The position numbers and the translations under genes were made by a program. Under the pieces are notes generated by a model. The model made no database searches and had not been told where the DNA came from. It saw only the letters and a list, made by a program, of their open reading frames with translations. Positions 1,764 to 49,582 of a stretch of DNA of 64,000 nucleotides are shown here, piece after piece. The number at the start of each line of letters is the position of its first letter. Within the stretch, counting starts at the first letter, position 1. Source of the stretch: a bacterium (GTDB lineage Bacteria > UBP14 > UBA6098 > B30-G16); contig JAUWMV010000004.1 in NCBI GenBank assembly GCA_030613005.1, positions 29,211-93,210 on the forward strand. Reading direction: 5' to 3'.

Positions 1764-2038
1764 GGTCCGTGCACCTTTTCCTCGACTCCCTTTTCCATGG
1801 TGTTCGAGTTTAAGCAACTCCGAACAAGCTACCCTACGGCACAGGAACTACTTATCCTACCGTTGCTCCCTCCCAGGCCTGGCGGAATTCAGATAGTGTT
1901 ACTTGCGCAGGACCTGGACATTAACATTACCGCCACCCAAACCCTCCACAGAGAGGTAAACCTCAGAGATGGAATTCAGCCCCGCGTATGCCGGGTTTCG
2001 GGTACAGGAGACCGGCAACCCCCCGCTTAGCACGGACC
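1764..2038 (-). ncRNA. ffs: Signal recognition particle RNA, long Bacillus-type with Alu domain
   Basis: GC-rich island in an AT-rich genome with a terminal pairing GGUCCGUGC...GCACGGACC. The minus-strand RNA begins GGUCCGUGCUAAGCGGGGGGUUGCCGGUCUCCUGUACC and contains GGUCCUGCGCAAG, CAGGCCUGGGAGGGAGCAAC (helix 8 motif), GUGCCGUAGGGU and a 3' AAGGUGCACGG. These are collinear with my recollection of the Bacillus subtilis scRNA (CCGUGCUAAGCGGGG, GGUCCUGCGCAA, CAGGUCCGGAAGGAAGCAGC, GUGCCGCAGGGU, AAGGUGCACGG). Confidence 0.8.
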
Positions 2039-8754: not shown

Positions 8755-9546
8755 ATGCGAAGGCTATGGGTTTTGTCAGTGTTAATTTTTTTGGTAATAA
8801 TAAACTCTGGATGCGCACCTAAACGAGAAATCATTTTTCCACGTCCTCCCAGCATTTCAGAAGTGGAACTACTCGACTCACTATTGACAATGGATAATGC
8901 CCTTGAAAGTGTAATGATATCGGGTCAGGGGATAATCGATTTCGGTAAAGAAAAGGACAGATTTACAATAAATCAAATTGTCCGACGCAGCGATAATATG
9001 CTAAACATACATATCGATGGACCGATGGGGATGACCTTAGCAATTGGATGGTTTTGCCGATCAGAAGTCTTATGCATCTATATTCCGTATAAAAATGCTG
9101 CGTTATGGACACCTTTAGGTAAAGCTGAGGAAGATGTTCTTGTTCCTCCTGATCGCGACAAATTAGTGGATATTTTATCCGGAAGTACACCTATTGCGCA
9201 TTTTGCAGATTCTCTCATCTCTTTCGAAAAGGTCGAAACGGGTTATTATCTTACATTTAAAAAGAATAACGAAGTTTTTGTGGCTTTTGTAAGACCTAAT
9301 CCTTGGCATATAGTAAATTATCAATATTCAAGGCTCGATAACAATAAATCGCTTATCGATGTTACTTTAGGCGAAGGCCAAGTTACAAACGGAATATGGA
9401 CACCAAAAACAATAGAGATTTTCGCGCCAATTGTCAACCAGCGAATTCTTTTCAAAATTAAAAAATTACTCTTAAATCCTAACATTGCGGACTCTTTATT
9501 CGAGGTAGATATACCAGAGGATGTAGAATGGTTTAAGGCTTTTTAA
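8755..9546 (+). CDS. lipoprotein, function unknown
   Basis: Signal peptide plus lipobox: MRRLWVLSVLIFLVIINSGC. 263 aa. Confidence 0.5.
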   Translation: MRRLWVLSVLIFLVIINSGCAPKREIIFPRPPSISEVELLDSLLTMDNALESVMISGQGIIDFGKEKDRFTINQIVRRSDNMLNIHIDGPMGMTLAIGWFCRSEVLCIYIPYKNAALWTPLGKAEEDVLVPPDRDKLVDILSGSTPIAHFADSLISFEKVETGYYLTFKKNNEVFVAFVRPNPWHIVNYQYSRLDNNKSLIDVTLGEGQVTNGIWTPKTIEIFAPIVNQRILFKIKKLLLNPNIADSLFEVDIPEDVEWFKAF

Positions 9547-10230: not shown

Positions 10231-13167
10231 TTGTTAAATTCAATATTTATAATTTCGCTTCTAATCGCAGGACAAACAGAAACTGGCAAATTCGAATCTG
10301 CCGATACAATCAATTTAGGTGTTTACGTTGTGCCATCGTCGGTGGAAATTTTGTGTAGAGAGGATATTATCCCTAAAAGCATCTATCAAGTTACAGTAGA
10401 AGGATTTATTACTTTTTTCTCCACAATTGAATGTGATTCATTGACAATTAATTACATTCCAGTTTCAAAACTCATTCCAAAAGTTAGGTCCGAACAGACA
10501 TTATTCGGAACTCAATCTTTTGCCCCAAGAGATCCAACCTTAATGGAATCTGAGGATGCTTACATAAGAACAAGTGGTTATGTAACTCGAGGTTTCAAAA
10601 TCAATGAAGCCAACGATGTAATATCAACTGGGGAACTAAGAATTGAAGCATACGGTCAGCTTCCTATGGGATTTGAAGTTAATGCGGTATTATCGGACGA
10701 AGACCTACCATTTCAACCCGAAGGAACATCACAAGAATTGACCGAATTGGATAAAATAATGATCGAGTTAACCTCACCTAGTTTTTCAGCATCTATGGGA
10801 GATATCGACATCGCAATTAGTGCTGGGGATTTCCTAAATTTTTCACGGAAAATAAAGGGGGCTTCAGCCAAAGCTAACCTTCCTTGGATAAATGGGCAGG
10901 TTTTTGGCTCGATTATTAGCGGTGAATTTACTAAATTTGCATTTTATGCTACCGAAGGGAACCAGGGGCCATATCCTCTACAGGGAAAAACTGGCGAACG
11001 AGATATTGTAATTGTTGCAGGTTCCGAGAATGTATGGCTTAACGGCGAGCAAATTAAACGAGGCACTGAAAACGAATATATTATCGATTACAATCTAGCT
11101 CAAGTAACCTTTAATCCCAACACTCCAGTAGGAGCTGGTGACAGAATTTATGTTGAATATCAATATATTGCCAATGTTTATCAAAGCTCCTTTTATGGAG
11201 GATCTGCCAATATCATTGGTATACAAGACATTACATTAGATGTGGGATTTATAACGCTAGCAGATAATGGAGAGGAACCTATTGGCGAAATAACCGATTC
11301 AATTCAAGCAATACTTGAATCCTCAGGAGATAACTTCCCAGATTCTTTAGTCTCACCACCAATGAAACAATGGTCTCTTGTTTCCGGATTAACAATAAAT
11401 AAGAAAAAAAATTCATTAACTGCAAGCCATTCTATGTCTGGAATAGATAAAAACACTTATTCGTCCTTAGATGATCATGACAATCTTGGGCAGGCTTTTT
11501 CTGCTGCCGGAACGTTAGGTATAACAAACATCGTTAGATTTTTCGCATCTACTCGATATATGGACAGCAAATTCAATTCTTTTCAACCGATTGAAACCGC
11601 TGAAGAAAAAAGAAACTGGGGAGTTTATAACAATGAAAATCAAGAAGATTTAATAACATCGGCAGGAATTAGAATAACTTTTGGAAAATTAATTTCCACA
11701 GTCAATTTAGGTTACAGGAAAACAGGAGATGAAACCTGCCAACGAGAACGACTTAGGTTATTGTTAGACGAGGACGGTTTTGATATTAATGCTGGAATAC
11801 AGAACATTCGTTTTGGAGATGAGCAACGATTAAATAGCGATTTAAAACTTTCTCGCGAAATTGGCGAAATAACGAAGCTTTCCTTTTCCGGGGATATGGA
11901 GTTATTCGAAGGCTCATCTGACTCACTTGTTTACAATTTTAAACCGGAATTAGGAATAAATGTTCTGGATGGCAATCTCGGTTTTTCTTTCCAAATCGAA
12001 GAAAAGCAAGCTCGTCCTGAAAAGAATTTTGAGCGTCTATATTCAATTCTCTCCCCTGGTGTGGGATTTTCGGGACGTTCCTTTTCAGCCAATTGGTATC
12101 GAAGAATGTATAGATCTTATGATACGCTTGCCGGCAGTGATTTAACAACCGACCTTTTCCAAGTTTCAGCATACACAAATATTTTGGGCACAAAAACGAG
12201 TTTTAATTACTCAGTAACCGGCAGTCAAAGCGAAATTATGGAGAAAAAATTCGAGGAGGTTAAAATCGGCACAGGAAATTATAGCTACGATGAAGAACTC
12301 GATGAATATGTTCCGGATCCAAATGGAGATTATATTCTAAAATATGAACCTACAGGAAGTTTTGATCAAGTACTTCGGAGCAATGGAAGACTTACAGTTG
12401 CTGCCGAGAATGAGAAAATTGCTCTCGGTTCAGCTTTTTCAATCACCTCATCTTTTGAAATTGAAAATAAAGATCGAAGCTTCTCTGGGATTTTACCTAT
12501 TCCATCAACGTTTGAGAGCGATTCACTTTGCTATGGCAATCTTTATACAACGATTCAACTCAATACACTCCGCAGAAGTAAGATCAATTTAAATAGTACT
12601 TACCAAAATATACGTATTACACGACGTAATCTCATATCGGGTGATGAAATATATAACGAAAATGAATTCAGGCTAAGTTTGGCAGGAGTAGTCTACCAAA
12701 GCATATTCTCCGAATTATCTGGAATCTATAACATAAAATCTTCAACACGTCCAGGTTTAGAGGATAAGCTTAATTCCCATAACTATTCAACAGAACTTGC
12801 ACTCAGCCGAAAATTCCTTCGATATATGCAAATTGGGAATAACATAATATTGACGGCATCTAAGGGTAAATCAGGTACAACGGATATCGATGCGTTTATA
12901 TTCAGGAATACTTTTGTCTTGCAGTGGCGCTACAAAAAATTTAGAACAAGGTTACGCTCCGAACAGATAAATGTGGATTCAAAGCAAGAAGCCTTACCTT
13001 ATGAAATTTCCGGAGGTTGGCCTAACGGTTTCAATTACAGTTTTTCCTCGAGTATCACATATAAATTCGGCTCAAATATCGATTTGACACTAAGTGGCAG
13101 AGGAACTAAAAAATCGGAAAAAGATTTAGATTATGACATCGAGCTTAGAGCCCGATTTCTATTCTAA
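10231..13167 (+). CDS. large outer-membrane beta-barrel-like protein (C-terminal Phe)
   Basis: 978 aa with a short N-terminal signal (MLNSIFIISLLIAGQ). Long stretches of alternating hydrophobic residues typical of beta strands. C-terminus ...RARFLF ends in an aromatic residue, as outer-membrane beta-barrels do. Confidence 0.5.
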   Translation: MLNSIFIISLLIAGQTETGKFESADTINLGVYVVPSSVEILCREDIIPKSIYQVTVEGFITFFSTIECDSLTINYIPVSKLIPKVRSEQTLFGTQSFAPRDPTLMESEDAYIRTSGYVTRGFKINEANDVISTGELRIEAYGQLPMGFEVNAVLSDEDLPFQPEGTSQELTELDKIMIELTSPSFSASMGDIDIAISAGDFLNFSRKIKGASAKANLPWINGQVFGSIISGEFTKFAFYATEGNQGPYPLQGKTGERDIVIVAGSENVWLNGEQIKRGTENEYIIDYNLAQVTFNPNTPVGAGDRIYVEYQYIANVYQSSFYGGSANIIGIQDITLDVGFITLADNGEEPIGEITDSIQAILESSGDNFPDSLVSPPMKQWSLVSGLTINKKKNSLTASHSMSGIDKNTYSSLDDHDNLGQAFSAAGTLGITNIVRFFASTRYMDSKFNSFQPIETAEEKRNWGVYNNENQEDLITSAGIRITFGKLISTVNLGYRKTGDETCQRERLRLLLDEDGFDINAGIQNIRFGDEQRLNSDLKLSREIGEITKLSFSGDMELFEGSSDSLVYNFKPELGINVLDGNLGFSFQIEEKQARPEKNFERLYSILSPGVGFSGRSFSANWYRRMYRSYDTLAGSDLTTDLFQVSAYTNILGTKTSFNYSVTGSQSEIMEKKFEEVKIGTGNYSYDEELDEYVPDPNGDYILKYEPTGSFDQVLRSNGRLTVAAENEKIALGSAFSITSSFEIENKDRSFSGILPIPSTFESDSLCYGNLYTTIQLNTLRRSKINLNSTYQNIRITRRNLISGDEIYNENEFRLSLAGVVYQSIFSELSGIYNIKSSTRPGLEDKLNSHNYSTELALSRKFLRYMQIGNNIILTASKGKSGTTDIDAFIFRNTFVLQWRYKKFRTRLRSEQINVDSKQEALPYEISGGWPNGFNYSFSSSITYKFGSNIDLTLSGRGTKKSEKDLDYDIELRARFLF

Positions 13168-13299: not shown

Positions 13300-14253
13300 T
13301 TATCTAATAAGAGTCATTTTCTTCTTATCAACGAAATCTTCGCTAACTGTTAGTTTATAGAAATATACACCCGATGGAACATCAATATGGTTATCATCAG
13401 TGCTGTCCCATATTATTTTATAGCTACCAGCATGTTTGAAACCCTCGAAAAGCAGTTTTACTCTCCTCCCAATAAGATCTGTTATCTCCATTTTTATTAT
13501 AGCCTCTTTTGGCAATTCATATTCAATCTCTGTAGAAGCATTAAACGGATTTGGATTATTCTGACCTAAATAAGGTTCCTTTGGTCTTGGAATTTTATCC
13601 TTAGGATTTTGAACAATGCGGGGATCAGATAAAGTATCTATTAGTACAACATACCAATTAGTAGTTGCACCAGGCTTAGTACTGAAAGTAGAGTCATAAT
13701 AATAATTAAAAGAACTTGATGAACCAGTTCTCGTTACATAAGCTTTAAACGTCGAGTCAATATTTCTGATACTAACAAAGAAAGAATCGCCAGTTGCTGG
13801 AGAAAGAGTAGAACTGTCCTCATCTAAAATATTTGCAAAACTACTGACCCAGATATGACGCTTTTTCCCATCCGGACAAAGGAACTTCTTGGTTATCTTA
13901 TCCCAGCCACTTGTAGACTTTCGATGAATCAATGAGGTTTTGAAGCTGTCAGAGGAGTCCTTCATCCAAAAATGTAAGATAAACCCGTTCCATGTAGTAT
14001 CATTACTAGTTGTTCCCACCCAACTTGAAAGAGAGGTATCGGTATAGCATATAGGAACCATCGATGTCCCATGCCTCTGACCCATACAAAACAGAATATT
14101 CAATGCATAAAATTGAATATCCAATGTATTATTGACTTCAAACCTTTGTCCTATTGTCCCACTGATAACTGGATCAACCGGTTCAGCAAAAATACCATTG
14201 AACAATACGAAACAAAAACTGAGAAAAATTACAACCCAGGTAAAATTCCTCAT
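13300..14253 (-). CDS. secreted protein with type IX secretion C-terminal sorting domain
   Basis: Signal peptide MRNFTWVVIFLSFCFVLFNG. C-terminal roughly 85 aa: NPNPFNASTEIEYELP...VPSGVYFYKLTVSEDFVDKKKMTLIR matches the Por_Secre_tail pattern. Confidence 0.65.
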   Translation of the reverse strand: MRNFTWVVIFLSFCFVLFNGIFAEPVDPVISGTIGQRFEVNNTLDIQFYALNILFCMGQRHGTSMVPICYTDTSLSSWVGTTSNDTTWNGFILHFWMKDSSDSFKTSLIHRKSTSGWDKITKKFLCPDGKKRHIWVSSFANILDEDSSTLSPATGDSFFVSIRNIDSTFKAYVTRTGSSSSFNYYYDSTFSTKPGATTNWYVVLIDTLSDPRIVQNPKDKIPRPKEPYLGQNNPNPFNASTEIEYELPKEAIIKMEITDLIGRRVKLLFEGFKHAGSYKIIWDSTDDNHIDVPSGVYFYKLTVSEDFVDKKKMTLIR

Positions 14254-15814: not shown

Positions 15815-17080
15815 TTAAGGACAAGTAGGCCAATATCCACCAGAACCTGCCATAAGAAGCAGAAGAACCTCACCAGGTCTAACGAACTCAGGAGGTGATG
15901 TTACATACCAGTCACCGAATAATTTCACAGCAAGAGCAGTAATAGTTGGTGGATAAGGATTCCATCTGTACAAAACCTCACCGTCAATTCCAGATTTACT
16001 ATCGACACTTTCAGCCAATTTATCAGCTCTAAGTGGATAATCACCATAAATATTCGCTAAAGTATTGTACTCCTGATAAGGAACCATGAAGAAAACGTAA
16101 CCAGCTGGATCACTAGATTTCTTTTCGAATTTATAACAAGTATCAACAGGAACAAAACCTCTTGGTTCATAACCAAGATCATCATTCGCATCGTAACCGA
16201 GAGTAAACAAATATTCATCGCCTGCTGTTAAAGAATCTAAAAGAGTTAATGTCATTATATCTCCAGGTCTAACATAAACTGTTGGCGCTGAAGGACTATA
16301 AATCCATACACCGAACAGTTTAAAACAAATAAGCTCCCAAGTTTGCGTTGAGGAATTAAATTTAGTTAAGCCTTCACAACCGGGTATCAAATCCGCAAAA
16401 ACATGCGCTGAATCACCATGTAGTTCCAACTCATGGCATCGAAGAGGTAGAGTAATATGATTTGTTGCACCACCAATAATAACTTGATCGTATTCACCAA
16501 TAGGATCACTTGGTTTTTCAGAGAGATTTCCGAACGTATCCATAGCAACAACAGTGTAGAAATAATTGACATCGGGGTCATTCACACCTCTGCTGCTATT
16601 ATATAGATTAGTATCCGCAAAAATATCAGTCGTTATATTTGGCCCAGACCAATTGTAATCACCCAAATCGGAGGAATCAGCTTCCTCTATTGGGTCTATC
16701 ATAATAGCTGAATCACCATCGCCGAACATATCTATATCATCCCAGTTGAAAAGAGCCCATGGAGCTCTATACACAAACCATGTTTGATTTCGATCTTCCG
16801 GTCCATCCCCATTTGCCTTGATCTCAACAGTTTCATCACCACTTTCAACAGAAACCGACTTAATATAGATTATTGGAGCCGGTGGTCCTGGGGGTTGTCG
16901 TAATGTTAAAAATATAAAAATATTAGCTGCAGTATCTACAAAAACTTCAGTGGGTTCTGTGGGAACACCTTCTCCTTTAGATGAAGTATCATTATCTTTA
17001 CCGGAACCTGAAACTCCAAAAGTAGCTCCGACAAGAGCTAATATTAATACAGCCATTGCCCACTTACGCATGTAAGTCAC
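15815..17080 (-). CDS. secreted hypothetical protein with an internally duplicated C-terminal module
   Basis: Signal peptide MTYMRKWAMAVLILALVGATFG. Two related segments, ...ELICFKLFGVWIYSPSAPTVYVRPGDIMTLTLL and ...ALAVKLFGDWYVTSPPEFVRPGEVLLLLMAG. Confidence 0.5.
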   Translation of the reverse strand: MTYMRKWAMAVLILALVGATFGVSGSGKDNDTSSKGEGVPTEPTEVFVDTAANIFIFLTLRQPPGPPAPIIYIKSVSVESGDETVEIKANGDGPEDRNQTWFVYRAPWALFNWDDIDMFGDGDSAIMIDPIEEADSSDLGDYNWSGPNITTDIFADTNLYNSSRGVNDPDVNYFYTVVAMDTFGNLSEKPSDPIGEYDQVIIGGATNHITLPLRCHELELHGDSAHVFADLIPGCEGLTKFNSSTQTWELICFKLFGVWIYSPSAPTVYVRPGDIMTLTLLDSLTAGDEYLFTLGYDANDDLGYEPRGFVPVDTCYKFEKKSSDPAGYVFFMVPYQEYNTLANIYGDYPLRADKLAESVDSKSGIDGEVLYRWNPYPPTITALAVKLFGDWYVTSPPEFVRPGEVLLLLMAGSGGYWPTCP

Positions 17081-24381: not shown

Positions 24382-25404
24382 ATGAACAATCGGGTAACTT
24401 TTATTGTTATGATTTCCATATTAACCTTAGGTATTCTGCTATTTTACGGATGCGCCGATAACAATAGCGATAACCACAAACCCGATAAATCCTACAGATT
24501 AAAAATGCAACTTACCGAGAACTCGAGTTCTTTAATACCGACGCTTGACGAAGCGATCGATACGACATCATGGATAGATGTCGTTCGACTTAATCCGGAT
24601 GCAACACCAGCGGAGTCGGTTTTAATAATAATCGACAGCGATTCTATGAAGGATTTAATTTATGCGTCCTTTGATTCAGCTCGATTTGAGCTTGGTGAAT
24701 TAGAATTTAATCCTACCGATCCCATTGATTTCAAGATGGTGGCAGGAAAAGATTCATTCTTTTCAATGTTCCCCACTCCACCTACAGAAGAAGTTATAAT
24801 AACTCGTCCAGAAGATGAAGAAACCCTTATCGCAGGTGAATCATTCGAAATACGTTGGATGTATTCCGGTGACACCCCCAGTATAACCACAATCATGATT
24901 GTCAAAGCAGAGATTCCATCAATTGATTTTCAAACAGATCTTCCGGGAACAACTAAAACATATTTTGTAGCAGATACACTTACAGCAGGTCATGCTAACT
25001 CTCACTTAAAAATCTTTGTTGTAGCCCATGAAACTACAGGTTTATCCGAAGATTATCTCGATATGTTTGTCGATATTCGAGTGAGTGATTTACTTCATTG
25101 CTTCCTTGGTAGCGATGATACAACAACAATTTACAAAGTAACAGTTACAGGTCCGGGAACTACTCCTACGATTTCATGGATACCAGATATTACTACTGCG
25201 GATTATATGATTGTCTACGAAACTGCGACAATAGATTCTATGTGGTATATTATCGGATATTTCAATAGCCCGGTTGTATACGGAACAGTTCCCTTTGGTG
25301 CTTTGGATTTTTTAGAAAAGCGAAATTTAACTGAGGATATCTCTTATTCCTTTATCGTACATTTTACGAACGGTCTATCTGATAAAGCAGAATACACACC
25401 ATAA
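24382..25404 (+). CDS. lipoprotein, function unknown
   Basis: Lipoprotein signal ...LGILLFYGCADNN. 340 aa, Thr/Asp-rich. Confidence 0.5.
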   Translation: MNNRVTFIVMISILTLGILLFYGCADNNSDNHKPDKSYRLKMQLTENSSSLIPTLDEAIDTTSWIDVVRLNPDATPAESVLIIIDSDSMKDLIYASFDSARFELGELEFNPTDPIDFKMVAGKDSFFSMFPTPPTEEVIITRPEDEETLIAGESFEIRWMYSGDTPSITTIMIVKAEIPSIDFQTDLPGTTKTYFVADTLTAGHANSHLKIFVVAHETTGLSEDYLDMFVDIRVSDLLHCFLGSDDTTTIYKVTVTGPGTTPTISWIPDITTADYMIVYETATIDSMWYIIGYFNSPVVYGTVPFGALDFLEKRNLTEDISYSFIVHFTNGLSDKAEYTP

Positions 25405-25451: not shown

Positions 25452-25865
25452 TCAACCACGCACTCGTTCAAGTGTTGCATTTATCTTGCCAGACTTGTGC
25501 CTTAATTCTTGTGTTCTAACGTATTCCGAGACTATGTCCATATGAGATTTGCTAACTGATACAACACCATAACCGTTATCCCAAATAGGTGGTGTTTTTA
25601 ATGCCATCTCATCAATCATAAATATAGTCGATTGATGTTTAACAAGCTCTGCAAGAGCTCCAGGCGCAACACCGGGCATCAATTGTGCAAAAAGATGAAT
25701 GTGATCGTTTAAAACCGAGATTGCTACAGGTTTATAGCCAAACTCATCCCCACGACTCGTAAAATAGCCTTGTAAAACTTTTTTCATAGCCGAGTTCATC
25801 TCAGAGGAATCCTCAGCTACCAGCCAAACTATATGACAATATATTTCCGAGAATCCTACTGGCAT
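25452..25865 (-). CDS. tnpA: IS200/IS605-family (Y1, HUH) transposase TnpA-like protein
   Basis: 137 aa. HUH motif in LNDHIHLFAQL and a catalytic Tyr region (VSEYVRTQ). The size and motif order are those of IS200 TnpA. Confidence 0.6.
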   Translation of the reverse strand: MPVGFSEIYCHIVWLVAEDSSEMNSAMKKVLQGYFTSRGDEFGYKPVAISVLNDHIHLFAQLMPGVAPGALAELVKHQSTIFMIDEMALKTPPIWDNGYGVVSVSKSHMDIVSEYVRTQELRHKSGKINATLERVRG

Positions 25866-27357: not shown

Positions 27358-28290
27358 CTAAGGTTTAACAATTATAGTCTCACCATCGATAGGAGACGGG
27401 AAAATAATACAGTTTTCATATTTTCCTGTTTCAACGATTGTGTTGGAGAAAACAATACAATTTTCCAAATATATTTCTGGATACAATTTAGCCTTTGAAT
27501 CCACATAAACGAAACCCTTAAGGTACACTGAATCCGGAGTTTTTACATTACTTTCAATAAAAGTTAATTTACCTGCAAGAGGATGCTTAACTACTGAATT
27601 TACTAATATTTCTTGATGTAACTTGAGATAATTTTTTAAATCTCCAAAGTCTAACCAGAACTCATTCTCTTCATATACTCGGACTAAGCCCTTTTCAAAC
27701 CAAGGTTTGAGTGCATCTGTTAGCTCTAAAAAGCCTTTATTAGAAAACGAATCGAGAACATCCGTATTAAAAAAACCAACCCCGGAATAAGTTAATTTCT
27801 TTATCGACGAATTTTTAGATAAGAATTCGGAACCAAAACCTATAACTGTTCCTGCTTTAGTTATAACATTATTTGTGAAATCATTATCAATCGTTATTAG
27901 TGTTACTTTCGCATTCGAATCCTTATGAAATTCATAAGCTTTTAATAAATTAAAGCTTTCTATAATATCGCAATTATGAACAAGCACTGTAGTTTCTGGG
28001 AGGATTTTGCTATACAGATTTCCCAATCCACCAGCTGTGCCCAGAATTTTATTCTCTGTAATACATTTTATCTTAAATTTTGAGGCATAACTTTCGATCT
28101 GAGCATTGTGATAATGTGTGTTTACAGCAATTTGAGTTATACCTGATTCATATAGTCTTTTATAAAGAACTTTCAAAGCTGGTATGCCAACAATAGGTAG
28201 TAAAGCCTTAGGGCAAAAATTTGTAAGCGGTTTGAGCCTTGAACCAAATCCCGCTGCAAGTATAAATGCATGTTTAGGAAACTTTCTCAT
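27358..28290 (-). CDS. sugar-phosphate nucleotidyltransferase with C-terminal left-handed beta-helix
   Basis: FILAAGFGSRLKPLTNFCPKALLPIVG (NTP-transferase G-rich loop). The C-terminal hexapeptide-like region is VYVDSKAKLYPEIYLENCIVFSNTIVETG. The start ATG at 28290 overlaps the upstream stop (ATGA). Confidence 0.6.
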   Translation of the reverse strand: MRKFPKHAFILAAGFGSRLKPLTNFCPKALLPIVGIPALKVLYKRLYESGITQIAVNTHYHNAQIESYASKFKIKCITENKILGTAGGLGNLYSKILPETTVLVHNCDIIESFNLLKAYEFHKDSNAKVTLITIDNDFTNNVITKAGTVIGFGSEFLSKNSSIKKLTYSGVGFFNTDVLDSFSNKGFLELTDALKPWFEKGLVRVYEENEFWLDFGDLKNYLKLHQEILVNSVVKHPLAGKLTFIESNVKTPDSVYLKGFVYVDSKAKLYPEIYLENCIVFSNTIVETGKYENCIIFPSPIDGETIIVKP

Positions 28291-28961
28291 ATAGGATATA
28301 TAATACATGCCGGGACTAAAGACCAAATTGGAATATCGTGAAAATCTTTCAAATCTTTCGCTAACATTAAAAGGTCTAAATAAAAGAAAATTGGCCAAGC
28401 TCCCCTGCCGTTCCCAAAACGCCAAAACCTTTTCTGGGAATAATCTTTCGAAAGTTTGCGTCGTTCTATCATTGAATCGTTCCAGCTTTTTTTATCCCTA
28501 AAATATATCTGAGCGCTTTTCTGAGACCATGCATGAATATCTGTACCAGCATTCACACAGATACTTAAAATACGTTTTAAATTGCGTTTATTCGGTGGTT
28601 CTGTTTTGAAAATGAATTGACTGATTTTACTGAAATTCTCCGAAGCAAGTCTAGAGAGTAATATTATCGGACATGCAAAAGCCGAAGCAAACGCAATTAC
28701 TTCAATAGATTTAGTTTCGATCTCGGTCTTTTCTGATAGACTGCTTATTGTTTCATCAAATTTAGTGAAAGGATAATCTAAATAGCGAATTTTTCCCTGT
28801 TCTTCAAAAGATCCCCATAATGAAGGTGTAATTCCCAATATTCTTTGCTCAAACTGATTTGCTAACCATTCAAGATTTTTCAGTTCTGTTTCCTCACCTA
28901 CACCGTAAATGATAGCACCAATATTCTTTACGAGCGATATGTATTCTGGAGAAATTATCAT
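28287..28961 (-). CDS. hypothetical protein
   Basis: 224-aa ORF sharing 4-nt ATGA overlaps with both flanking genes. No recognisable motif. Confidence 0.45.
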   Translation of the reverse strand: MIISPEYISLVKNIGAIIYGVGEETELKNLEWLANQFEQRILGITPSLWGSFEEQGKIRYLDYPFTKFDETISSLSEKTEIETKSIEVIAFASAFACPIILLSRLASENFSKISQFIFKTEPPNKRNLKRILSICVNAGTDIHAWSQKSAQIYFRDKKSWNDSMIERRKLSKDYSQKRFWRFGNGRGAWPIFFYLDLLMLAKDLKDFHDIPIWSLVPACIIYPI

Positions 28962-30222: not shown

Positions 30223-31161
30223 ATGGACATATTTGAATATTCAAGGCTCTCAATTGAAGAAATTGCAAAAAGAATAGATAAAGCCAAACGCAATCTTGGA
30301 GCCGTTATTATTGCTCACAGCTATCAACGTATAGAAGTACAGCAGATTGCGGATATTGTTGGCGATTCTCTTGAACTTGCACGAGAGGTAGTAAATACCG
30401 ACGCACCTATAATTGTATTCTGTGGTGTAATGTTTATGGCTGAGACAGCCAAAATAATTAATCCCGACAAAGTTGTTTTAATTCCAGAGATTCAGGCAGG
30501 TTGTCCTTTAGCAGCTCATGCTACTGCTGAGGATCTTATAAGAATGAAAGGTAAATATCCTGGTTATAAAGTAGTAACATATATAAATTCTACTGCTGAA
30601 GTTAAATCTGTTTCAGATATTGCATGTACAAGTGCAAATTCTGTCAAGGTTGTAGAATCCTTCCCAAAAGAGCAGGGAATAATTTTCGTGCCAGATAAAA
30701 ATTTATGCGCATATACAAAGAGGATAACTGGTAGAGAAAACATTGTATGTTGGGATGGTCATTGCTACGTTCATGATAGAATTACTGCTCAAGAGATATT
30801 AAATGCAAGAAAAATGCATCCCGATGCAGTGATTATTGCACATCCGGAGGTTAACGCAGAAGTTCAGGAACTGTCGGATCTTATCGGTTCCACGAGCGTG
30901 ATGTATAGATATGTTCGAGATCACCCAAAACAAGCTGTGGTTCTTGTAACCGAATATGGTCTTATTCAACGTATTAACACTGAATTTCCGGGAACATCCG
31001 TGTATCCTATTCATGAGCATGCAATTTGCTCAAATATGAAATTAATAACACTTGAAAAAGTTCTTCGGACACTCGATGAACAAATTTACGAAATTAACAT
31101 ACCAAATGCAATTGCGAACCGAGCCAGAGTTGCAATAGATCGAATGTTAGCTATTAAGTGA
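30223..31161 (+). CDS. nadA: quinolinate synthase
   Basis: VFCGVMFMAETAKIINPDK, ACTSANS and the conserved Cys positions of NadA. 312 aa. Confidence 0.9.
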   Translation: MDIFEYSRLSIEEIAKRIDKAKRNLGAVIIAHSYQRIEVQQIADIVGDSLELAREVVNTDAPIIVFCGVMFMAETAKIINPDKVVLIPEIQAGCPLAAHATAEDLIRMKGKYPGYKVVTYINSTAEVKSVSDIACTSANSVKVVESFPKEQGIIFVPDKNLCAYTKRITGRENIVCWDGHCYVHDRITAQEILNARKMHPDAVIIAHPEVNAEVQELSDLIGSTSVMYRYVRDHPKQAVVLVTEYGLIQRINTEFPGTSVYPIHEHAICSNMKLITLEKVLRTLDEQIYEINIPNAIANRARVAIDRMLAIK

Positions 31162-31215: not shown

Positions 31216-32526
31216 TTGAAAACTTACAAGGATGTTTCTTACTGTAAATATTGTGGTAGCAAACTCGAGAAACTGAACATTGAAGGACGAGAAAGAGATA
31301 TTTGCGCAAATCCAAATTGCAGTGCAATCTCATATAACAACCCAATTCCTGCAACTGCATTAATTGTACCTCACCCGCGTTTTGCAGAAAAGATACTACT
31401 CGTCAAACGAGCTTGTGAACCCGCAAAGGGGGAATATTGTCTTCCTGGAGGGTTTCAGGAAATCGATGAAACACCAGAACAGTGCGCAATCCGGGAACTT
31501 TGTGAGGAAACATGTCTTAAAGGAGAAGTAATTCTTCCTTTGGGACTAAAAATGCAATTTTCCCCACAATATTTTTGGGTGCTTTTAACCGGATATCAAA
31601 TGAAGATAACCTCAGATAAAATAAAACCTGGGGACGATGCCGAGGAAGCTGGTTTTTTCGATATTAATAATCTTCCTCCCATTGCATTCGAGGGTCACAC
31701 ATGGTTTTTGGAGCGTTATAAAGAGAAATGGGTTGAAACTAAGAAATCAACGATTAATGAAAAGAGTTCACTTCTTATTATGGACATGAAAGATCCTGCA
31801 AAGCGTTATCTTGTACCTATATCGCGCAAAAAGTTCTCCACAAAAGGAGGAACAATCGACCTGATGAGTCTTGTGGGTAGCGAATTTGGAAGAATTATCA
31901 AAACTCATCTTGGTGAAAAACTCTTAATCCTAAAACCAACTCTATACGATAACATAATGTTAGGTGTTAAAAGACAAACACAAATAATCTATCCAAAGGA
32001 TTCACCATACATAGCTCTATGGTTAGGTCTTAGGAATGGCTATAAAGTTTTCGAATGCGGTTCTGGTTCCGGAGCGATGACGATTGTTTTAGCTAATGCA
32101 GTCTCACCAAACGGGAAGGTTGTCTCCTACGAATCGGATGAACGCTTCTACAAATTAGCAAGAAAGAATATTGAAAAAAATGATCTTTCCAGTAGCGTCG
32201 ATTTTTATCTCAAAGACCTATCAGATGGAATAACTCATGGACCATTCGATGCTGGTTTCATCGACATAAAAGAACCCTGTGAACATCTGGAAATCATTTG
32301 GGGTGCATTAAAAGCATCTGCACCTATTGCGTTCGTTCTCCCAACAACAAATCAAATTTCCCAATTGCTTCAATCCCTGAAGGATTTTAATGGATTCACG
32401 GATATACAAGTTTGTGAATTGCTGTTACGATTCTATAAAACGGTGCCACAAAGACTGCGACCTAAAGATCGAATGGTTGCCCATACAGCTTATATGATAT
32501 TTGCACGGAAAATTTTGAAGGATTGA
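31216..32526 (+). CDS. fusion protein: N-terminal zinc-ribbon + Nudix hydrolase (NudC-like) + C-terminal TrmI/Gcd14-like tRNA (adenine-N1)-methyltransferase domain
   Basis: TTG start 8 nt after GGAG. CKYCGSKL...CANPNCS zinc ribbon. Nudix box GGFQEIDETPEQCAIRELCEETCL. C-terminal half has FECGSGSGAMTIVLANAVSPNGKVVSYESDERFYKLARKNIEKN (SAM-binding GxGxG plus the TrmI-type VVSYE/ARKN). Confidence 0.65.
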   Translation: MKTYKDVSYCKYCGSKLEKLNIEGRERDICANPNCSAISYNNPIPATALIVPHPRFAEKILLVKRACEPAKGEYCLPGGFQEIDETPEQCAIRELCEETCLKGEVILPLGLKMQFSPQYFWVLLTGYQMKITSDKIKPGDDAEEAGFFDINNLPPIAFEGHTWFLERYKEKWVETKKSTINEKSSLLIMDMKDPAKRYLVPISRKKFSTKGGTIDLMSLVGSEFGRIIKTHLGEKLLILKPTLYDNIMLGVKRQTQIIYPKDSPYIALWLGLRNGYKVFECGSGSGAMTIVLANAVSPNGKVVSYESDERFYKLARKNIEKNDLSSSVDFYLKDLSDGITHGPFDAGFIDIKEPCEHLEIIWGALKASAPIAFVLPTTNQISQLLQSLKDFNGFTDIQVCELLLRFYKTVPQRLRPKDRMVAHTAYMIFARKILKD

Positions 32527-32527
32527 T

Positions 32528-35437
32528 ATGCCCGGAATTACAGCACACTTTAACTTCGATCCTAAAACAATCAATCCGCAATGCATAACTATCGTACCCT
32601 ATAAATCAGATGAGCAAATAATTCTACAAAGGCTCGATGTTGATATCGCATCTGTAGGATGGAATATAATCACTATTAGAGAATTAATCGAGACTTTCAA
32701 AACCGAAATATTTTGGCCAATAGAGATTAGCGATATTCAATCTTTCGCAATTGCACACAGAATATTTTTAGAAAGCGATTTCCATAAAGAATTAGTCGAT
32801 CTACGAAAAAAGCCATCCTTTCCAAGAAAACTTATGGAATTTTTCCAGACTACTGATCAAGCTGGTATATTGGAGCATTTCGAAATTGATCGTTTATTAT
32901 GTTCAAGCAAACTCGGTCCGAGAACCAAAGAGGCATTAACCTTGTATAAAAAATTCCGAGAGGAATTAAGGAATAACGCCCTTGCCACCTATGATTATCT
33001 CTTCCATCTTGCCTTAAAAGCTGTAAAAAAAGGTCGTTTTCCACAATCGCTAAAATTTAAAGAAATAATCATTTTTTTTAACTTCATGGAATTCAACATT
33101 CCCCAACGAGAATTCGTAATGGAGCTTGGAAAAATTAAAAATGTGTCTCTTTGCTTTCCAATAGAATACTGCGATTATCCTGTTAGATGGCGAGAACCGA
33201 TTAACAACCTTTTGAATGAGTTTGGCATATATGTTAATGAAAACCGGATGAAATCACAAAAAGCTATTACTTTAGTGCTTAACGGTGAATATGAAAATCT
33301 AAAAGACAATATTCAATTTCTCCTTTTACCAGATCCCCAAAGAGAAGTTAGAATAGTTGCCAGATTAGCTAAATACTATACAATTAAAGATAAAATTGAT
33401 ACACAAGATATGTTAATCATAACTCCGGATACAGATGCATATAAATCCTTGTTATCCTTAGAATTAGGATTCGTAGGACTCGACTTTCCTGATCAAGCTT
33501 CTACCCATAATGAAGCAGATTTAGAAAATCTTTTTAGCAAACTTATGACAGCTGTAGCAAGCGATTGGCGTCGAGAAGAACTGATTCAATTATTCAAACA
33601 CCCAATTCTTCAAAAAGCATATCCCGAACTTGAAAGTAAATGGATAGAACAGTATACAGCTTTTAATAAGCTGATTGATATCAAGAGCTGGCAGGAAATA
33701 GAACTGGAAGATGAAAAAGCTATACAAATTCTCGAACTGATTGGAAAATTTGATTTCCTTAAAAACTTGATTCCAGCTAATAAGCTTGAATCGACAATGC
33801 AACACATCAGCAACATTTTGTCAATTCAAATTGGTATAGAATCGCTTCCGCAGTTAAAGGATGAGCTATCAGAGCAATGGTCACGAATTATTAATAACGC
33901 AAAAGAATTAGAAAAAGGTTATTGTAAATTAAAATTCACCGGTCTTGAGTTCCTGGCAATTCAACTTTCACTTCTAAAACGCAAGAAATTCAAGGCTATC
34001 TCAAGCAAAATAAGAATATTACCACCGCTTGAAGCAAGAGGTGTTAATGCCAAAATCATTTTTATTATCGGTTTTAATAGGAGCAATTATCCTCAAAGGC
34101 ACAACCCAAATCCTATTATAGACACAGATTATCGGGACATTTTTTCATTTATTTCCGACAAAGAAGGAATAAGTCGGATATCACTTATTCAATCTATGTG
34201 CCTTGCTGAAAAAGTTATTATTACTATACCTCAAACTAGCGGAGAGGATAATGATCTTGCCCTTTGTCATCCTATCGACGAGATAATGCGGTTCTGCGGC
34301 ATTTCGCTTGAAATGGCACAAAAGAAAGCAATAGAAATTTGGGACGAACTTGAAAATCTTGAAAGAAAAAAAGTATCTTCGACTCTCACACAAATACCGA
34401 ACGAGGACATTGTAAAATTGATTTCACCATATCAAATAGATCAACTTAAAGAAAATATTATTGCCAAAGGCTTGGGAATAGGAGAACTTGAAAAATATCA
34501 TATATGTCCATTATTATTTTTACTAAGCAAGAGTATAGGCAAACCAGAAACTGAAAAAATCACTTTAGAAACAAACTGGAGAATAATAGGAACTGCAATT
34601 CATGATGCATTAAAAGACTTTCTAAGTAAACGATTCATGAAAATCTTCAATGAGGAACCTTTTGGAAAAGGAATTCAATCTCAACGTAACAGATTACACA
34701 CAAGAGAATTAACACCATCTTTGTTGAAACAATTTATCAATAAATTTAAACTTAATAACCGTGAGAATTTCAATTGTTTTGCAGAGCAATTCTTTGGACA
34801 TTATGAAGAATTCGATGAATTAATTAGTGAATTAAGAAAATCTATTTTCTATAATTTTGAATTAATTTGGAAAACTGAGCCTTCTTTGTTGATTAATAAA
34901 GCAAGGTTCCTCTCGATGTTTACTGAAAAACAACTTAATGATATTCTTGAAAGTATTATTAACATTACAGGAGATGATGTTTGGTTGCCCATAGGATTCG
35001 AAGTGCCAATTCAAGAAAGGCGTGAAATCGATGGACATAAAATCCTAATAAAGGGTCGAATCGATAGAGTGGATTTGTCCTTTATAAATGATTTACCTTA
35101 TTTATGCATTATCGACTATAAAAGTTCTGATATTAATTCTGTATATGAATTCCAGCTTAACGCATATGGCACGATGCTATCGAGAGCAGGATTTGAAATT
35201 GATAATCTATCTTGTATATACAACCTTATTAGAGATGAGAAGGTTGGGCAAAAAGAATTTAAGTTTAATTATGAGTCGGCTTTTGATCCGCAAAACAAAC
35301 AAAAAAATATTGATGAAATACTATTCTCAATATGGGACTGCAAGTTCGATCCTTTGGAAAATAGGAATTGTAAAAGCTGTATTTACAAAAAACATTGCTC
35401 ACAGTCTAAATATGATAAATCGAAGCAGTTCGATTAA
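32528..35437 (+). CDS. AddB-like protein: degenerate helicase-like N-terminal region + C-terminal RecB/Cas4-type PD-(D/E)XK nuclease with Fe-S cysteines
   Basis: 969 aa. C-terminal motifs GRIDRVD (II), IIDYKSS (III), QLNAYGTML (QxxxY). One upstream Cys (HICP) plus CX2CX5C (CKSCIYKKHC), as in AddB/Cas4. No Walker A found in the N-terminal part. The start ATG is 1 nt after the upstream stop. Confidence 0.6.
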   Translation: MPGITAHFNFDPKTINPQCITIVPYKSDEQIILQRLDVDIASVGWNIITIRELIETFKTEIFWPIEISDIQSFAIAHRIFLESDFHKELVDLRKKPSFPRKLMEFFQTTDQAGILEHFEIDRLLCSSKLGPRTKEALTLYKKFREELRNNALATYDYLFHLALKAVKKGRFPQSLKFKEIIIFFNFMEFNIPQREFVMELGKIKNVSLCFPIEYCDYPVRWREPINNLLNEFGIYVNENRMKSQKAITLVLNGEYENLKDNIQFLLLPDPQREVRIVARLAKYYTIKDKIDTQDMLIITPDTDAYKSLLSLELGFVGLDFPDQASTHNEADLENLFSKLMTAVASDWRREELIQLFKHPILQKAYPELESKWIEQYTAFNKLIDIKSWQEIELEDEKAIQILELIGKFDFLKNLIPANKLESTMQHISNILSIQIGIESLPQLKDELSEQWSRIINNAKELEKGYCKLKFTGLEFLAIQLSLLKRKKFKAISSKIRILPPLEARGVNAKIIFIIGFNRSNYPQRHNPNPIIDTDYRDIFSFISDKEGISRISLIQSMCLAEKVIITIPQTSGEDNDLALCHPIDEIMRFCGISLEMAQKKAIEIWDELENLERKKVSSTLTQIPNEDIVKLISPYQIDQLKENIIAKGLGIGELEKYHICPLLFLLSKSIGKPETEKITLETNWRIIGTAIHDALKDFLSKRFMKIFNEEPFGKGIQSQRNRLHTRELTPSLLKQFINKFKLNNRENFNCFAEQFFGHYEEFDELISELRKSIFYNFELIWKTEPSLLINKARFLSMFTEKQLNDILESIINITGDDVWLPIGFEVPIQERREIDGHKILIKGRIDRVDLSFINDLPYLCIIDYKSSDINSVYEFQLNAYGTMLSRAGFEIDNLSCIYNLIRDEKVGQKEFKFNYESAFDPQNKQKNIDEILFSIWDCKFDPLENRNCKSCIYKKHCSQSKYDKSKQFD

Positions 35438-35479: not shown

Positions 35480-36019
35480 TTATTTGGAAACCTTTGTTGA
35501 CGATTGAACGAGAACTCCTATAACAGTCAAAATTATGATGTATAAATACACACGGGTCGGTTGTTGGAAAGACAGTTCCAAAGGTGGAATACGCAAAATT
35601 CCCGATGTCATCATAACAGCCCCTAAAAGCGATGTTGCCACAATAACTATGAAGTTTTTCAGAAAAAACGCAAGTGCAATACCCATAAGAGCTAATACAA
35701 CACTTAGAACTTTCATTGGAATATCTGGAACCCAACTGAATAAAAGTGTAGCAAGAGACCATCCACCAAATCCACCAAGAACAATCAGAGCAATCCAGCT
35801 TGCTATACTAAAAAGAAACGAACCGACAATTCCCCCGATAACCACATAAAGAATTGATAAAATAATTGTTGGTCCGGTTGAAATTGCAATAACAAGCCCC
35901 AACAACGCACCTAATAAAAACCCAAGCAGAGGAATTGCTTTAAAAAAAAGTCTTCTCCCTGCAAAAAGAATCACGATCCCAAACAAAATTGCAAGGACTC
36001 TATAAAAAATATTTTCCAT
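35480..36019 (-). CDS. integral membrane protein, function unknown
   Basis: 179 aa with five to six predicted transmembrane helices, rich in G/L/I/V. Confidence 0.5.
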   Translation of the reverse strand: MENIFYRVLAILFGIVILFAGRRLFFKAIPLLGFLLGALLGLVIAISTGPTIILSILYVVIGGIVGSFLFSIASWIALIVLGGFGGWSLATLLFSWVPDIPMKVLSVVLALMGIALAFFLKNFIVIVATSLLGAVMMTSGILRIPPLELSFQQPTRVYLYIIILTVIGVLVQSSTKVSK

Positions 36020-36808: not shown

Positions 36809-37189
36809 TTATGAAGTTTCATAAAAAGCATTAACAAAATGGTCAATTTTTTTATTCTTAAAATCCACAGTTATAACATCGAAACGAACAGGAACATCAT
36901 GAATGTTATTCTCAAATAAGTATTTCTTTGCAGCTGAAATCAGATGAGACTGTTTTTTTTCATCAACCCATTCAGCAGGATGCCCAAAAGCTCCTGAGCT
37001 AGCAGACTTGACCTCCACGAAAACTATTGTATCGTTATCCTTTGCTATAATATCTATTTCTCCGCTTCTAAAACGGAAATTTTGCATAATAATAGAAAAA
37101 CCTTTCTTCTCAAGGAATTCTGCAGCTACCATTTCACCTTTATGTCCAAGAGATTGCCTATGTGAAGACATTCGCTTATCCATTTTCAT
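36809..37189 (-). CDS. yraN: YraN-family (UPF0102) endonuclease-like protein
   Basis: GHKGEMVAAEFLEKKGFSII...GEIDIIA...IVFVEVK pattern. Confidence 0.7.
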   Translation of the reverse strand: MKMDKRMSSHRQSLGHKGEMVAAEFLEKKGFSIIMQNFRFRSGEIDIIAKDNDTIVFVEVKSASSGAFGHPAEWVDEKKQSHLISAAKKYLFENNIHDVPVRFDVITVDFKNKKIDHFVNAFYETS

Positions 37190-39182: not shown

Positions 39183-40112
39183 CTAGCGCTTTTCAAGCAA
39201 ACTTTTTATCCTATTAACTAATTCCGAGGACATAACATTGCGGATCGATGATAAATCTGCTACAGCTAAAGAAGAAATAATGGATTTAATGGGATCATTT
39301 TCTTTCTTTAAAACTACTCTGGATAATTCTCGAGATAATGCACTCATGCATTTTTTGAAAAGCTCATCACATTGGGCTTTCTTTTCGTGAAAAACCGAAA
39401 GCACTCTTGTGTGAACAAAGGTTCGTTCGCATTCAGGGCAAATAAAATTCTCAATAATCTCATCTCTGGACAATTTATGCTCACACGGGCACCACTCAGT
39501 TAAATAAGCATTTATCTCATTCGATAAAGCATCGGTGCAAAAAGGTTGCATGGGTTTAATCTTAGAAAAAGTCAAAACTATATCTTGTTTTTCCTTTAAT
39601 TCATCTAAATCATGCTGAATTTTCATCAATTCTGAATTGTGCTTTTCATGAAATGCAAGATATTCTGTAGTATAGTCGTCAAGAAGCATTTCAAATCGAT
39701 ACAAATATTCTGTAATTCGATGCGGTAGAATAAATAGTGATTCTTTAGCTAAATCCTTTAGAGTTTTTGAGATAAACATCAGCTTAATATTTCCAGGAGG
39801 GAGAATCCCTTCCTGAAGTAATTTCGCTGTTTTAAGCAACATTTCCTTTGATTTTATTAAATTATTCCATCCGTCAATTAAAAAGCTTAGTTCAGTTAGC
39901 ATAGAGACCAGCTGTAACTCAGTTGGAGCCTGAGAGTAAAATCTATCCACAGTTTCAAAGGATTTTATATTTGCAATTCGTTTTAACCAAAATTGTATTC
40001 TTTCCGGAAGGTTGTAACCAAAACTGTAAGCAATCTCTTTCAATTCTGCTTCAAGTTTATCTGGTGAACAGGTCATAATATTGTTTATCGGATTGTGAAG
40101 TAGATTATCCAT
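39183..40112 (-). CDS. hypothetical protein with a C-terminal Cys-rich (zinc-finger-like) segment
   Basis: 309 aa. WCPCEHKLSRDEIIENFICPEC motif. No other recognisable domain. Confidence 0.45.
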   Translation of the reverse strand: MDNLLHNPINNIMTCSPDKLEAELKEIAYSFGYNLPERIQFWLKRIANIKSFETVDRFYSQAPTELQLVSMLTELSFLIDGWNNLIKSKEMLLKTAKLLQEGILPPGNIKLMFISKTLKDLAKESLFILPHRITEYLYRFEMLLDDYTTEYLAFHEKHNSELMKIQHDLDELKEKQDIVLTFSKIKPMQPFCTDALSNEINAYLTEWCPCEHKLSRDEIIENFICPECERTFVHTRVLSVFHEKKAQCDELFKKCMSALSRELSRVVLKKENDPIKSIISSLAVADLSSIRNVMSSELVNRIKSLLEKR

Positions 40113-48601: not shown

Positions 48602-49582
48602 TTATTCTTTCTCAGCCTGAGAGTTTTCTTCACGAGTTTTTTCTTTTACATCGTCCTTTTCTTCAACTTCTTCTTCAGCTTCTTTTCCAACCTTTTCCTT
48701 ATATTTATCCGGTTCTAAATTTTCTGCGTCCTTTGTATTATCAGAAGGTTTAACAGATTCCTTAGCTTCAGTATATTCATCAGATTTAGTAACAGCACTT
48801 TCTTTTATTGTAAATACTTCTTTTTCATCTTCAATAACGGCTTTTTCAGGCTTTTTAATCTCTTCATCTATCTTAACTTCAACCTTCTCTTCAACCTTCT
48901 TCTTTCCGTCCTCCTCAACAGTAACCTTAATCTCTTCAACAACTTTCTGTTCAGTAACTTCCTCGACTTCCTCTTTAATCTCTTCTTGAATAGCTTCCTC
49001 GAGTTTTTCCTTTACAACCGTCTCGGCTTCTTCATCACGAATTTCTTGCTTAATATCTTCCGTAGCCTCGAGTTCCTGTACTGTAAGTTCTTCTTCCATA
49101 ACGATCTCTTCCTCAATGGGTTCTTTCGAAACTCTCTTAGTCGGCTTTTTACGTTTAGAAACTTCTATAACATCGTGTTCAATTTTACCTTTAGTACGTT
49201 TTTTACGTTTCTTCCCCTCAATCTCTTCAACTAGAAGCTGTAACAAAACAATTTTAGCTCCATCCCCTTTGCGCCATCCAATGTTGTAAACTGCTGTGTA
49301 ACCACCTGGGGATCTGTTTGAGAAATCATCCTGTCCAAGCTTAATAACTTTATGCGCAACATCACGATTCTTGATATAAGAAATTATTCTTCTCTTATCC
49401 GCCAGTGTTCCTGAAATAGAATATGTAATCAATCTATCTGCAACTTTACGAGCTGCTTTTGCTTTTGCTACAGTGGTTTGCACAGAATATTTTTCAAAAA
49501 GTGATGTAACAATGTTTCTAAGCATCGCTTTTCTGTGATCCGCTGGACGTGAAAGTTTGTCAATTCTTTTTCTGTGTCGCAT
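48602..49582 (-). CDS. rplQ: 50S ribosomal protein L17 with a roughly 200-aa Glu/Lys-rich C-terminal extension
   Basis: The N-terminal 125 aa are canonical L17 (MRHRKRIDKLSRPADHRKAMLRN...GGYTAVYNIGWRKGDGAKIVLLQL). The ORF then continues in frame through a long low-complexity E/K/V tail. Confidence 0.85.
   Translation of the reverse strand: MRHRKRIDKLSRPADHRKAMLRNIVTSLFEKYSVQTTVAKAKAARKVADRLITYSISGTLADKRRIISYIKNRDVAHKVIKLGQDDFSNRSPGGYTAVYNIGWRKGDGAKIVLLQLLVEEIEGKKRKKRTKGKIEHDVIEVSKRKKPTKRVSKEPIEEEIVMEEELTVQELEATEDIKQEIRDEEAETVVKEKLEEAIQEEIKEEVEEVTEQKVVEEIKVTVEEDGKKKVEEKVEVKIDEEIKKPEKAVIEDEKEVFTIKESAVTKSDEYTEAKESVKPSDNTKDAENLEPDKYKEKVGKEAEEEVEEKDDVKEKTREENSQAEKE

Follow-up and report, generated by a model that had tools for sequence, protein, structure and literature searches.

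An AddB-like protein of an uncultured bacterial clade, encoded directly behind trmI and with no addA gene at its locus

The 64,000-nucleotide stretch of DNA analysed here (the window; positions 29,211 to 93,210 of contig JAUWMV010000004.1, assembly GCA_030613005.1, GTDB lineage UBP14) carries an AddB-like gene whose product combines a dead UvrD-like helicase scaffold, a RecB-type nuclease, and a four-cysteine (4Cys) signature, which together define AddB structurally. The protein belongs to a rare, fast-evolving AddB subfamily of a small, deep clade of uncultured bacteria from sediment. As far as its sequence can be read, it retains every part of the AddB half of the machine and none of the parts that would confer motor activity. 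The gene is probably the AddB orthologue of this clade, its motor partner being an AddA-type protein that we assume to be encoded elsewhere in the genome. The decisive mark of AddB membership would be an AddA partner in the genome and a heterodimer with ATP-dependent exonuclease/helicase activity. The gene is a curiosity of gene order and not a new kind of system. The gene and the features of its product are as follows, in window coordinates and amino acid (aa) positions.

32528..35437, plus strand: AddB-like gene, called as a complete open reading frame (ORF) of 969 aa plus stop.
32528..34363, plus strand: inactivated superfamily 1 (SF1; UvrD-like) helicase scaffold of AddB/RecC type, aa 1-612, from profile, hhalign, and model.
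34475..35398, plus strand: RecB-family PD-(D/E)XK nuclease domain, aa 650-957, flanked by four predicted iron-sulfur (Fe-S) cluster cysteines, from PF12705 and local Cas4 and addB_Gpos matches.
34505..34507, plus strand: Cys660 in YHICPLLF, predicted Fe-S ligand 1, by regular expression and invariant in the family.
34601..34603, plus strand: His692 in GTAIHDAL, histidine of nuclease motif I, from the family alignment.
35054..35074, plus strand: GRIDRVD, aa 843-849, nuclease motif II with the catalytic Asp, by regular expression and aligning with AddB GRIDRVD.
35108..35122, plus strand: IIDYK, aa 861-865, nuclease motif III (D-x-K), by regular expression and family alignment.
35153..35167, plus strand: QLNAY, aa 876-880, QxxxY motif, by regular expression and family alignment.
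35369..35398, plus strand: CKSCIYKKHC, aa 948-957, CX2CX5C, predicted Fe-S ligands 2-4, by regular expression and family alignment.

The C-terminal nuclease domain is the only part of the protein that Pfam detects. The match to PDDEXK_1 (PF12705) covers aa 653-957 with an expectation value (E) of 4.3e-20 and 73 bits, against a cutoff of 22, so the nuclease motifs are not a chance occurrence. Across four full-length family members, the residues C660, H692, G843, D846, R847, D849, D863, Y864, K865, Q876, Y880, C948, C951, and C957 were all invariant, at only 26-30% identity to the window protein. His692 was also nearly invariant among 24 aligned AddB-like sequences. The domain also contains a poorly conserved helical insertion at approximately aa 700-810. 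The initial annotation, which was made from the letters alone, had described a complete RecB-nuclease motif set (GRIDRVD, IIDYK, and QxxxY) and the AddB/Cas4 cysteine pattern of one upstream Cys and CX2CX5C. Both descriptions hold: the motifs were located by regular expression within the PF12705 match, and they and all four cysteines are invariant in the family. Based on these residues, the protein is predicted to have nuclease activity and to bind an Fe-S cluster through C660/C948/C951/C957. A regular-expression scan of all 969 aa for [AG]xxxxGK[ST], GK[ST], and DExx returned no match. Finally, a Shine-Dalgarno-like AGGA motif lies 5 nt before the ATG of the gene, within the end of the upstream ORF.

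The homology of the remainder of the protein to AddB was visible only by profile-profile or structure methods. Using the single sequence as query, a word-indexed protein search recovered only its own 90% cluster, and phmmer found no match in the PDB. An exhaustive phmmer search of 1.84 billion representative proteins returned 23 at E<1e-3. These comprised three full-length relatives (P0005-P0007) at 27-31% identity, several fragments, and a remainder of 1000-1160-aa proteins that aligned to the N-terminal region and are AddB-like by NCBIfam. Among the 23, P0018 is a bona fide TIGR02773 AddB, scoring 1004.9 bits against a cutoff of 903.7. A second search using the family alignment recovered only 5 remote proteins. 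Searched against the PDB, the family profile best matched AddB of Bacillus subtilis (3u44_B; E 4e-8; profile 270-544 vs AddB 314-633), followed by Cas4 (4ic1_A; E 3e-6; nuclease domain) and RecC (1w36_C; 6e-5).

The initial annotation had seen in the N-terminal region a likeness to the inactivated helicase scaffold of AddB without a Walker A motif, and had proposed a profile comparison with AddB. Indeed, aligning the four full-length members to ten AddB-like proteins in hhalign gave a probability of 100 and E 4.5e-64 over 897 columns (query 12-963 vs template 29-1070). As the ten template proteins were picked from the query's own matches, this comparison is partly circular, and an AlphaFold2 (AF2) model searched with Foldseek was therefore used as an independent check. 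The model had a mean predicted local distance difference test (pLDDT) score of 77.3 and a predicted template modelling (pTM) score of 0.61, with the scaffold mostly at pLDDT 80-95. The five best PDB matches were all chain B of AddB (4cei/4cej/4ceh/3u4q/3u44; E 7e-24 to 5e-23), and RecC (E 1e-18), AdnA, AddA, and UvrD ranked next. Because AddB chain B and then RecC head this list, the N-terminal region of approximately 610 aa is read as the dead UvrD-like scaffold of AddB/RecC, and the protein is homologous to AddB along its whole length. An SF1-derived 'FIIGFNRSNYPQRH' segment is kept at aa 511-525, where it aligns to 'FVLGANDGVLPARP' of AddB. The hhalign, PDB profile, and Foldseek results thus agree on the scaffold that the initial annotation had proposed.

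The site of the ATP-binding P-loop differs most clearly from that of an active helicase. None of the family's N-terminal sequences compared contains a Walker A motif, and the loop and the helix that follows it are deleted in the family: query column 12 of the hhalign alignment falls on template column 29. In the AF2 model, the P-loop position is occupied by a strand at aa 4-8, a short loop, and a strand at aa 19-23. To be without Walker A is nothing unusual, as this feature is not universal in AddBs. Two AddB-like proteins, P0012 (1090 aa) and P0027 (962 aa), likewise have none even though an AddA gene comes directly after each of them; a missing P-loop therefore does not mean that the partner is missing too. 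The same N-terminal absence is seen in AddB-like proteins of the Bacteroidota type, such as P0030 of Maribacter, which is approximately 15-16% identical to the window protein in the multiple alignment. The family differs from that type in having no helix after the P-loop position and, in the window, no addA. As in other AddBs that have no P-loop, the nucleotide-stabilised Chi binding of B. subtilis cannot take place in this protein.

Among experimentally characterised enzymes, the length and layout of the 969-aa window protein are almost identical to those of AddB from Bacteroides fragilis (BF2191), which has about 957 aa, 209 fewer than B. subtilis AddB with its 1166 aa (PMC2887965). The B. 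fragilis cysteines, C674...C946/C949/C955 around a DYK motif, correspond to C660...C948/C951/C957 of the window protein, and BfAddAB requires BF2191 and BF2192 together (PMC2887965). B. subtilis AddB (chain B of 3U44/3U4Q/4CEH-J) has the same order of folds, namely a four-subdomain dead UvrD-like helicase, a linker, and a 4Cys nuclease, and shares GRIDRVD, DYK, and QxxxY. It is, however, about 200 aa longer, and it has a nucleotide-binding Walker A motif, which stabilises the recognition of Chi (PMC3321194), whereas the window protein has none.

Other identities were considered and rejected. RecC (1W36 chain C), the second-best fold class, has a similar dead SF1 scaffold that scans the 3' strand, but its nuclease-like domain is inactive and has no Fe-S cluster, whereas the nuclease motifs and four cysteines of the window protein are intact. 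Both subunits of AdnAB keep Walker A and B; the window protein has neither Walker A nor DExx, and AdnA was a weaker fold match. Cas4 (SSO0001, 4IC1) carries the same nuclease and 4Cys module, but it is a cas-associated protein of about 200 aa with no helicase-like scaffold. By contrast, the window protein joins the module to a scaffold, scores 19.5 bits against a cutoff of 65 for the Cas4 model TIGR00372, and has no cas genes or clustered regularly interspaced short palindromic repeat (CRISPR) array around it in the window. The proteobacterial, AddB-like 'probable DNA repair protein' TIGR03623 matched only locally, at aa 449-531 (21.4 vs 299.6 bits).

The initial annotation had described the gene as an orphan with no adjoining AddA/UvrD partner. 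This description stands for the locus: no such partner was found in the window or beside any relative. Among the ORFs of at least 450 aa in the window, none encodes a helicase, and no UvrD-type gene occurs in the family loci L002, L003, L004, L009, and L010, flanks included. When two AddA sequences were used as tblastn queries against the window and all family loci, they matched only the nuclease domain of the AddB-like gene itself; as a positive control, the two queries found each other at E 1e-26 and 7e-35. The premise that AddB is normally encoded next to AddA was likewise supported. The two nearest outgroup AddB-like genes each have addA directly downstream, addB BF2191 of B. fragilis adjoins addA BF2192 (PMC2887965), and in Campylobacter jejuni the adjacent addB and addA genes form the addBA operon (PMC5665897).

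The B. subtilis AddAB enzyme uses its AddA motor to draw the 3' strand through AddB, whose dead-helicase domain scans that strand for Chi. The duplex end is bound by the AddB nuclease, which is held together by its Fe-S cluster and cleaves the 5' strand (PMC3321194). The window protein may work in much the same way. Its scaffold of about 610 aa would thread and scan the 3' strand and dock the AddA motor, as such a domain does in AddAB. Its C-terminal 320 aa would form a RecB-type nuclease stapled by the 4Cys Fe-S cluster; in AddAB, such a domain binds the end of the DNA and digests the 5' strand. Lacking a motor itself, the protein most likely acts as a heterodimer with an AddA-type protein (UvrD helicase plus RecB nuclease) encoded elsewhere. 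Such a heterodimer would resect double-strand breaks for RecA loading; this role in break resection, like the existence of a distant addA gene, is presumed. In Helicobacter pylori, which has a functional AddAB, addA and addB reportedly lie far apart and AddB is said to be without ATPase motifs; this would be a precedent for an addB gene that only looks like an orphan. The H. pylori protein comes from a different phylum and is shorter.

Several observations weigh against assigning the gene to AddB with a distant partner. The curated AddB models are missed by far: the protein scores 32.9 of 903.7 bits for TIGR02773 (addB_Gpos) and 14.3 of 486.5 for TIGR02786, and it has no match to rexB or to PF21445 (ADDB_N). 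In NCBIfam, only short sub-threshold matches were obtained (addB_Gpos, TIGR03623, cas4, and addB_alphas). No AddA/UvrD-like helicase sequence was found within the 64 kb of the window or in the DNA that flanks seven independent family loci. Finally, adjacency to the tRNA methyltransferase gene trmI persists at divergences at which every other neighbour differs, with a gap of 1 nt in the window and an overlap of 8 nt in L003.

The absence of addA from those seven loci, when both nearest outgroups carry it downstream, would also be expected if the clade had no AddA. The AddB derivative would then act alone as an Fe-S end-binding nuclease or with a new motor of the UvrD/PcrA, RecQ, or PriA type. 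The deletion of the whole P-loop and helix segment also fits that explanation, as does the divergence of the family, which was the most divergent AddB-like group recovered and had only 23 matches at E<1e-3 in the exhaustive search. We nevertheless consider it rather unlikely. No part of the protein is more constrained than the scaffold, which has a ratio of nonsynonymous to synonymous substitution rates (dN/dS) of 0.15-0.21; this fits a retained role in docking and strand threading. Moreover, functional AddAB enzymes in which AddB has no Walker A are already known, as is, reportedly in H. pylori, one with unlinked genes, and no alternative helicase is consistently nearby: PriA is encoded in L010 only, and nothing comparable is encoded in the window. 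If the genomes of the clade do prove to be without AddA, the protein would be a Chi-scanner/nuclease subunit working without its motor.

The family is rare. It accounts for about ten sequences among the 1.84 billion representatives, and a survey with four full-length members as queries found it at 5 loci among representative genomes of 185,579 species, all of them metagenome-assembled genomes (MAGs). Three metagenome contigs also carry it. Of its members, the window protein diverges most, with 25-30% identity to all others vs 32-83% among those others. Across three strain-level full-length copies (the window, L001, and L005), dN/dS was about 0.20-0.24, and the gene is under purifying selection. 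The C-terminal third, which holds the variable helical insertion, was less constrained than the scaffold (0.34-0.49 vs 0.15-0.21).

Very fast evolution and a lost P-loop could also mark the gene as a decaying addB relic that is heading for pseudogenisation after loss of addA; the protein is 26-30% identical to its nearest relatives vs 54-61% for the adjacent TrmI. This is highly improbable given that the ORF is intact in three strains at a dN/dS of about 0.2, that no catalytic or Fe-S residue varies within the family, and that full length has been kept in at least 6 lineages.

The genes that flank the AddB-like gene are as the initial annotation had them, a Nudix-TrmI fusion upstream and a membrane protein downstream, both confirmed by Pfam.

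30223..31161, plus strand: nadA, quinolinate synthase, by Pfam; 54 nt upstream of the fusion gene and not conserved in relatives.
31216..32526, plus strand: fusion of a Zn-ribbon NudC-like Nudix domain (aa about 4-160) and a TrmI tRNA m1A58 methyltransferase (aa about 186-436), by Pfam GCD14, NUDIX, and Zn_ribbon_Nudix.
35480..36019, minus strand: TM7S3/TM198-like membrane protein, by Pfam; convergent, downstream, at the end of the unit, and not conserved in relatives.

The TGA of the fusion gene ends 1 nt before the ATG of the AddB-like gene on the same strand, and the two genes probably share a transcript. nadA may be the first gene of this transcription unit. A promoter-like site lies at 30069-30097; as the promoter and terminator scan gave no more sites than shuffled sequence, the operon structure is read from spacing and strand. 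Farther downstream, 1.4 kb from the AddB-like gene and on the opposite strand, the ORF at 36809..37189 (minus strand) encodes a UPF0102/YraN protein with a NERD-type nuclease domain; its adjacency to the AddB-like gene is limited to the window's own clade (L001).

The initial annotation took conservation of the upstream pairing in related genomes as a point on which its reading turned. For the TrmI part, the pairing is conserved: in six of nine lineages (the window clade, L003, L004, L009, L010, and L012), the gene directly upstream, and on the same strand, is trmI. The Nudix part does not share this conservation, occurring in only two of the six AddB-linked lineages. In L003, Nudix and TrmI are separate genes, and it is the TrmI gene that overlaps the AddB-like gene. 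TrmI itself appears ordinary in this clade. The best PDB matches of its domain are the TrmI homologues 1o54 (200 bits), 2yvl, 3mb5, 1i9g, and 2pwy, and the TrmI proteins of the clade are 54-61% identical to one another.

A search with the TrmI alignment yielded about 15 clusters that form a tight, clade-specific group, set clearly apart from the next relatives, which are in Aquificota at 47-50% identity. Three further members of this group (L017, L020, and L019) have no AddB-like gene downstream. Of these, L017 comes from the same MAG as L002 (GCA_021162205.1), which holds trmI and the AddB-like gene on different contigs; the linkage is therefore dispensable. In neighbour-joining trees, the adjacent state spans the deepest branches, and the non-adjacent state is confined to the L017/L020 subclade (81% identical) and L019. 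The trmI-addB order thus looks ancestral for the clade and, on these trees, lost at least twice. In the outgroup Persephonella, the genes after trmI are those for proB and endonuclease V, with no trmI-AddB pair.

This linkage invites a different reading, in which the AddB-like protein forms a functional module with TrmI, and possibly Nudix, for RNA or tRNA surveillance or for handling modified nucleic acids, and not for repair of DNA breaks. The presence of the pair in deep branches, its tight spacing in two of the lineages (1-nt gap or 8-nt overlap), its absence from the Persephonella outgroup, and the fusion or adjacency of Nudix to trmI in three lineages would all suit such a module. We regard it as very unlikely, however. 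The adjacency was lost in the two places described above, one MAG keeps the genes apart, the TrmI proteins are ordinary and well conserved, with TrmI enzymes as their nearest structures, and whatever can be recognised in the nuclease protein belongs to a subunit that processes DNA ends. To our knowledge, there is no precedent for a module of an AddB-like nuclease and TrmI. Nor do we think it at all likely, though the prospects are somewhat better, that the AddB scaffold-nuclease has been uncoupled from AddA, to be co-expressed with TrmI/Nudix as a motor-less protein that uses a non-AddA helicase or a non-canonical substrate. If that were true, no AddB/RecC-type protein before it would have had a role independent of AddA. 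Returning to an AddB orthologue with a distant AddA-type partner, the position behind trmI would be a clade-specific ancestral gene order with probable co-transcription and not a functional module, given that one MAG has retained both genes without the linkage.

Nudix and TrmI also occur as separate genes overlapping by 4 nt in L003 (8720..10008) and L019 (9462..10756), and the L019 pair has no AddB-like gene. The gene fusion and the L019 pair suggest that the Nudix protein, possibly an NAD-cap or nucleotide hydrolase, is functionally linked to TrmI independently of the AddB-like gene. In L017 (6453..9437, minus strand) and L018, a 994-aa Rad50/SbcC-like ATPase with a zinc hook is encoded 2 kb from trmI; its presence in the L017 MAG indicates that the clade has other end-processing machinery.

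An origin in a mobile element or in anti-phage defence, with the protein as a Cas4-like or other PD-(D/E)XK effector, has very little in its favour and is most improbable. The nuclease domain has weak Cas4 matches, and the TrmI domain (aa 252-424 of the fusion protein) matches mad2 of the mads_2 system in PADLOC at 63.9 bits. The Cas4 matches, however, are domain-level only, at about 16-24 bits (NCBIfam and PADLOC) in a 969-aa protein, and the window has no CRISPR array or tandem repeats of such type. The mad2 match is far weaker than the 200 bits to 1o54 and, as real TrmI structures score at about that level, it is probably generic similarity among GCD14-type methyltransferases. No relative of the family was found in IMG/VR viral contigs, and the locus is core chromosome of even G+C content, with a ribosomal protein operon, rpoA, secY, adk, thrS, clp, accA, and purA.

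The analysis adds to the AddB family a highly divergent subfamily that escapes the curated models. The breaking of the addB-addA pair in a whole clade, with a trmI-addB arrangement in its place, is a new detail. The family alignment could seed a hidden Markov model, through which such proteins would be annotated as AddB-like and not as a generic 'PD-(D/E)XK nuclease'.

Several other features of the window were noted. The ORF at 10231..13167 (plus strand), which is of similar size to the AddB-like gene but unrelated to it, encodes 978 aa that have no Pfam match and are rich in Gly/Ser/Asn/Tyr by eye; its product looks like a large outer-membrane beta-barrel or a protein of the type IX secretion system (T9SS) type. 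T9SS genes (PorV, PorP/SprF, and CHU_C) occur in the flanks of family loci and may point to a lineage related to Bacteroidota (FCB group). At the thresholds used, Pfam also gave no match for ORFs of 224-569 aa at 61044..62753, 39183..40112, 15815..17080, and 13300..14253, nor for those at 8755..9546, 24382..25404, and 28287..28961. The product of 39183..40112 has CxxC pairs (CPCEH and CPECERTF). The ribosomal protein L17 ORF at 48602..49582 (minus strand) is 326 aa long with its L17 domain at aa 20-116 only, which points to a C-terminal extension of unusual length (about 200 aa), a mis-set stop, or a fusion.

A 137-aa Y1 (IS200/RAYT-like) transposase is encoded at 25452..25865 (minus strand), between a lipoprotein-like ORF and thiC, and is conserved in the sister strain from a Joint Genome Institute (JGI) metagenome (L001, 2929..3342). 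No thiamine pyrophosphate (TPP) riboswitch was detected upstream of thiC at the gathering threshold, and no tRNA genes were found in the 64 kb. A large-type bacterial signal recognition particle RNA (RF01854; 119.7 bits) is encoded at 1767..2035 on the minus strand.

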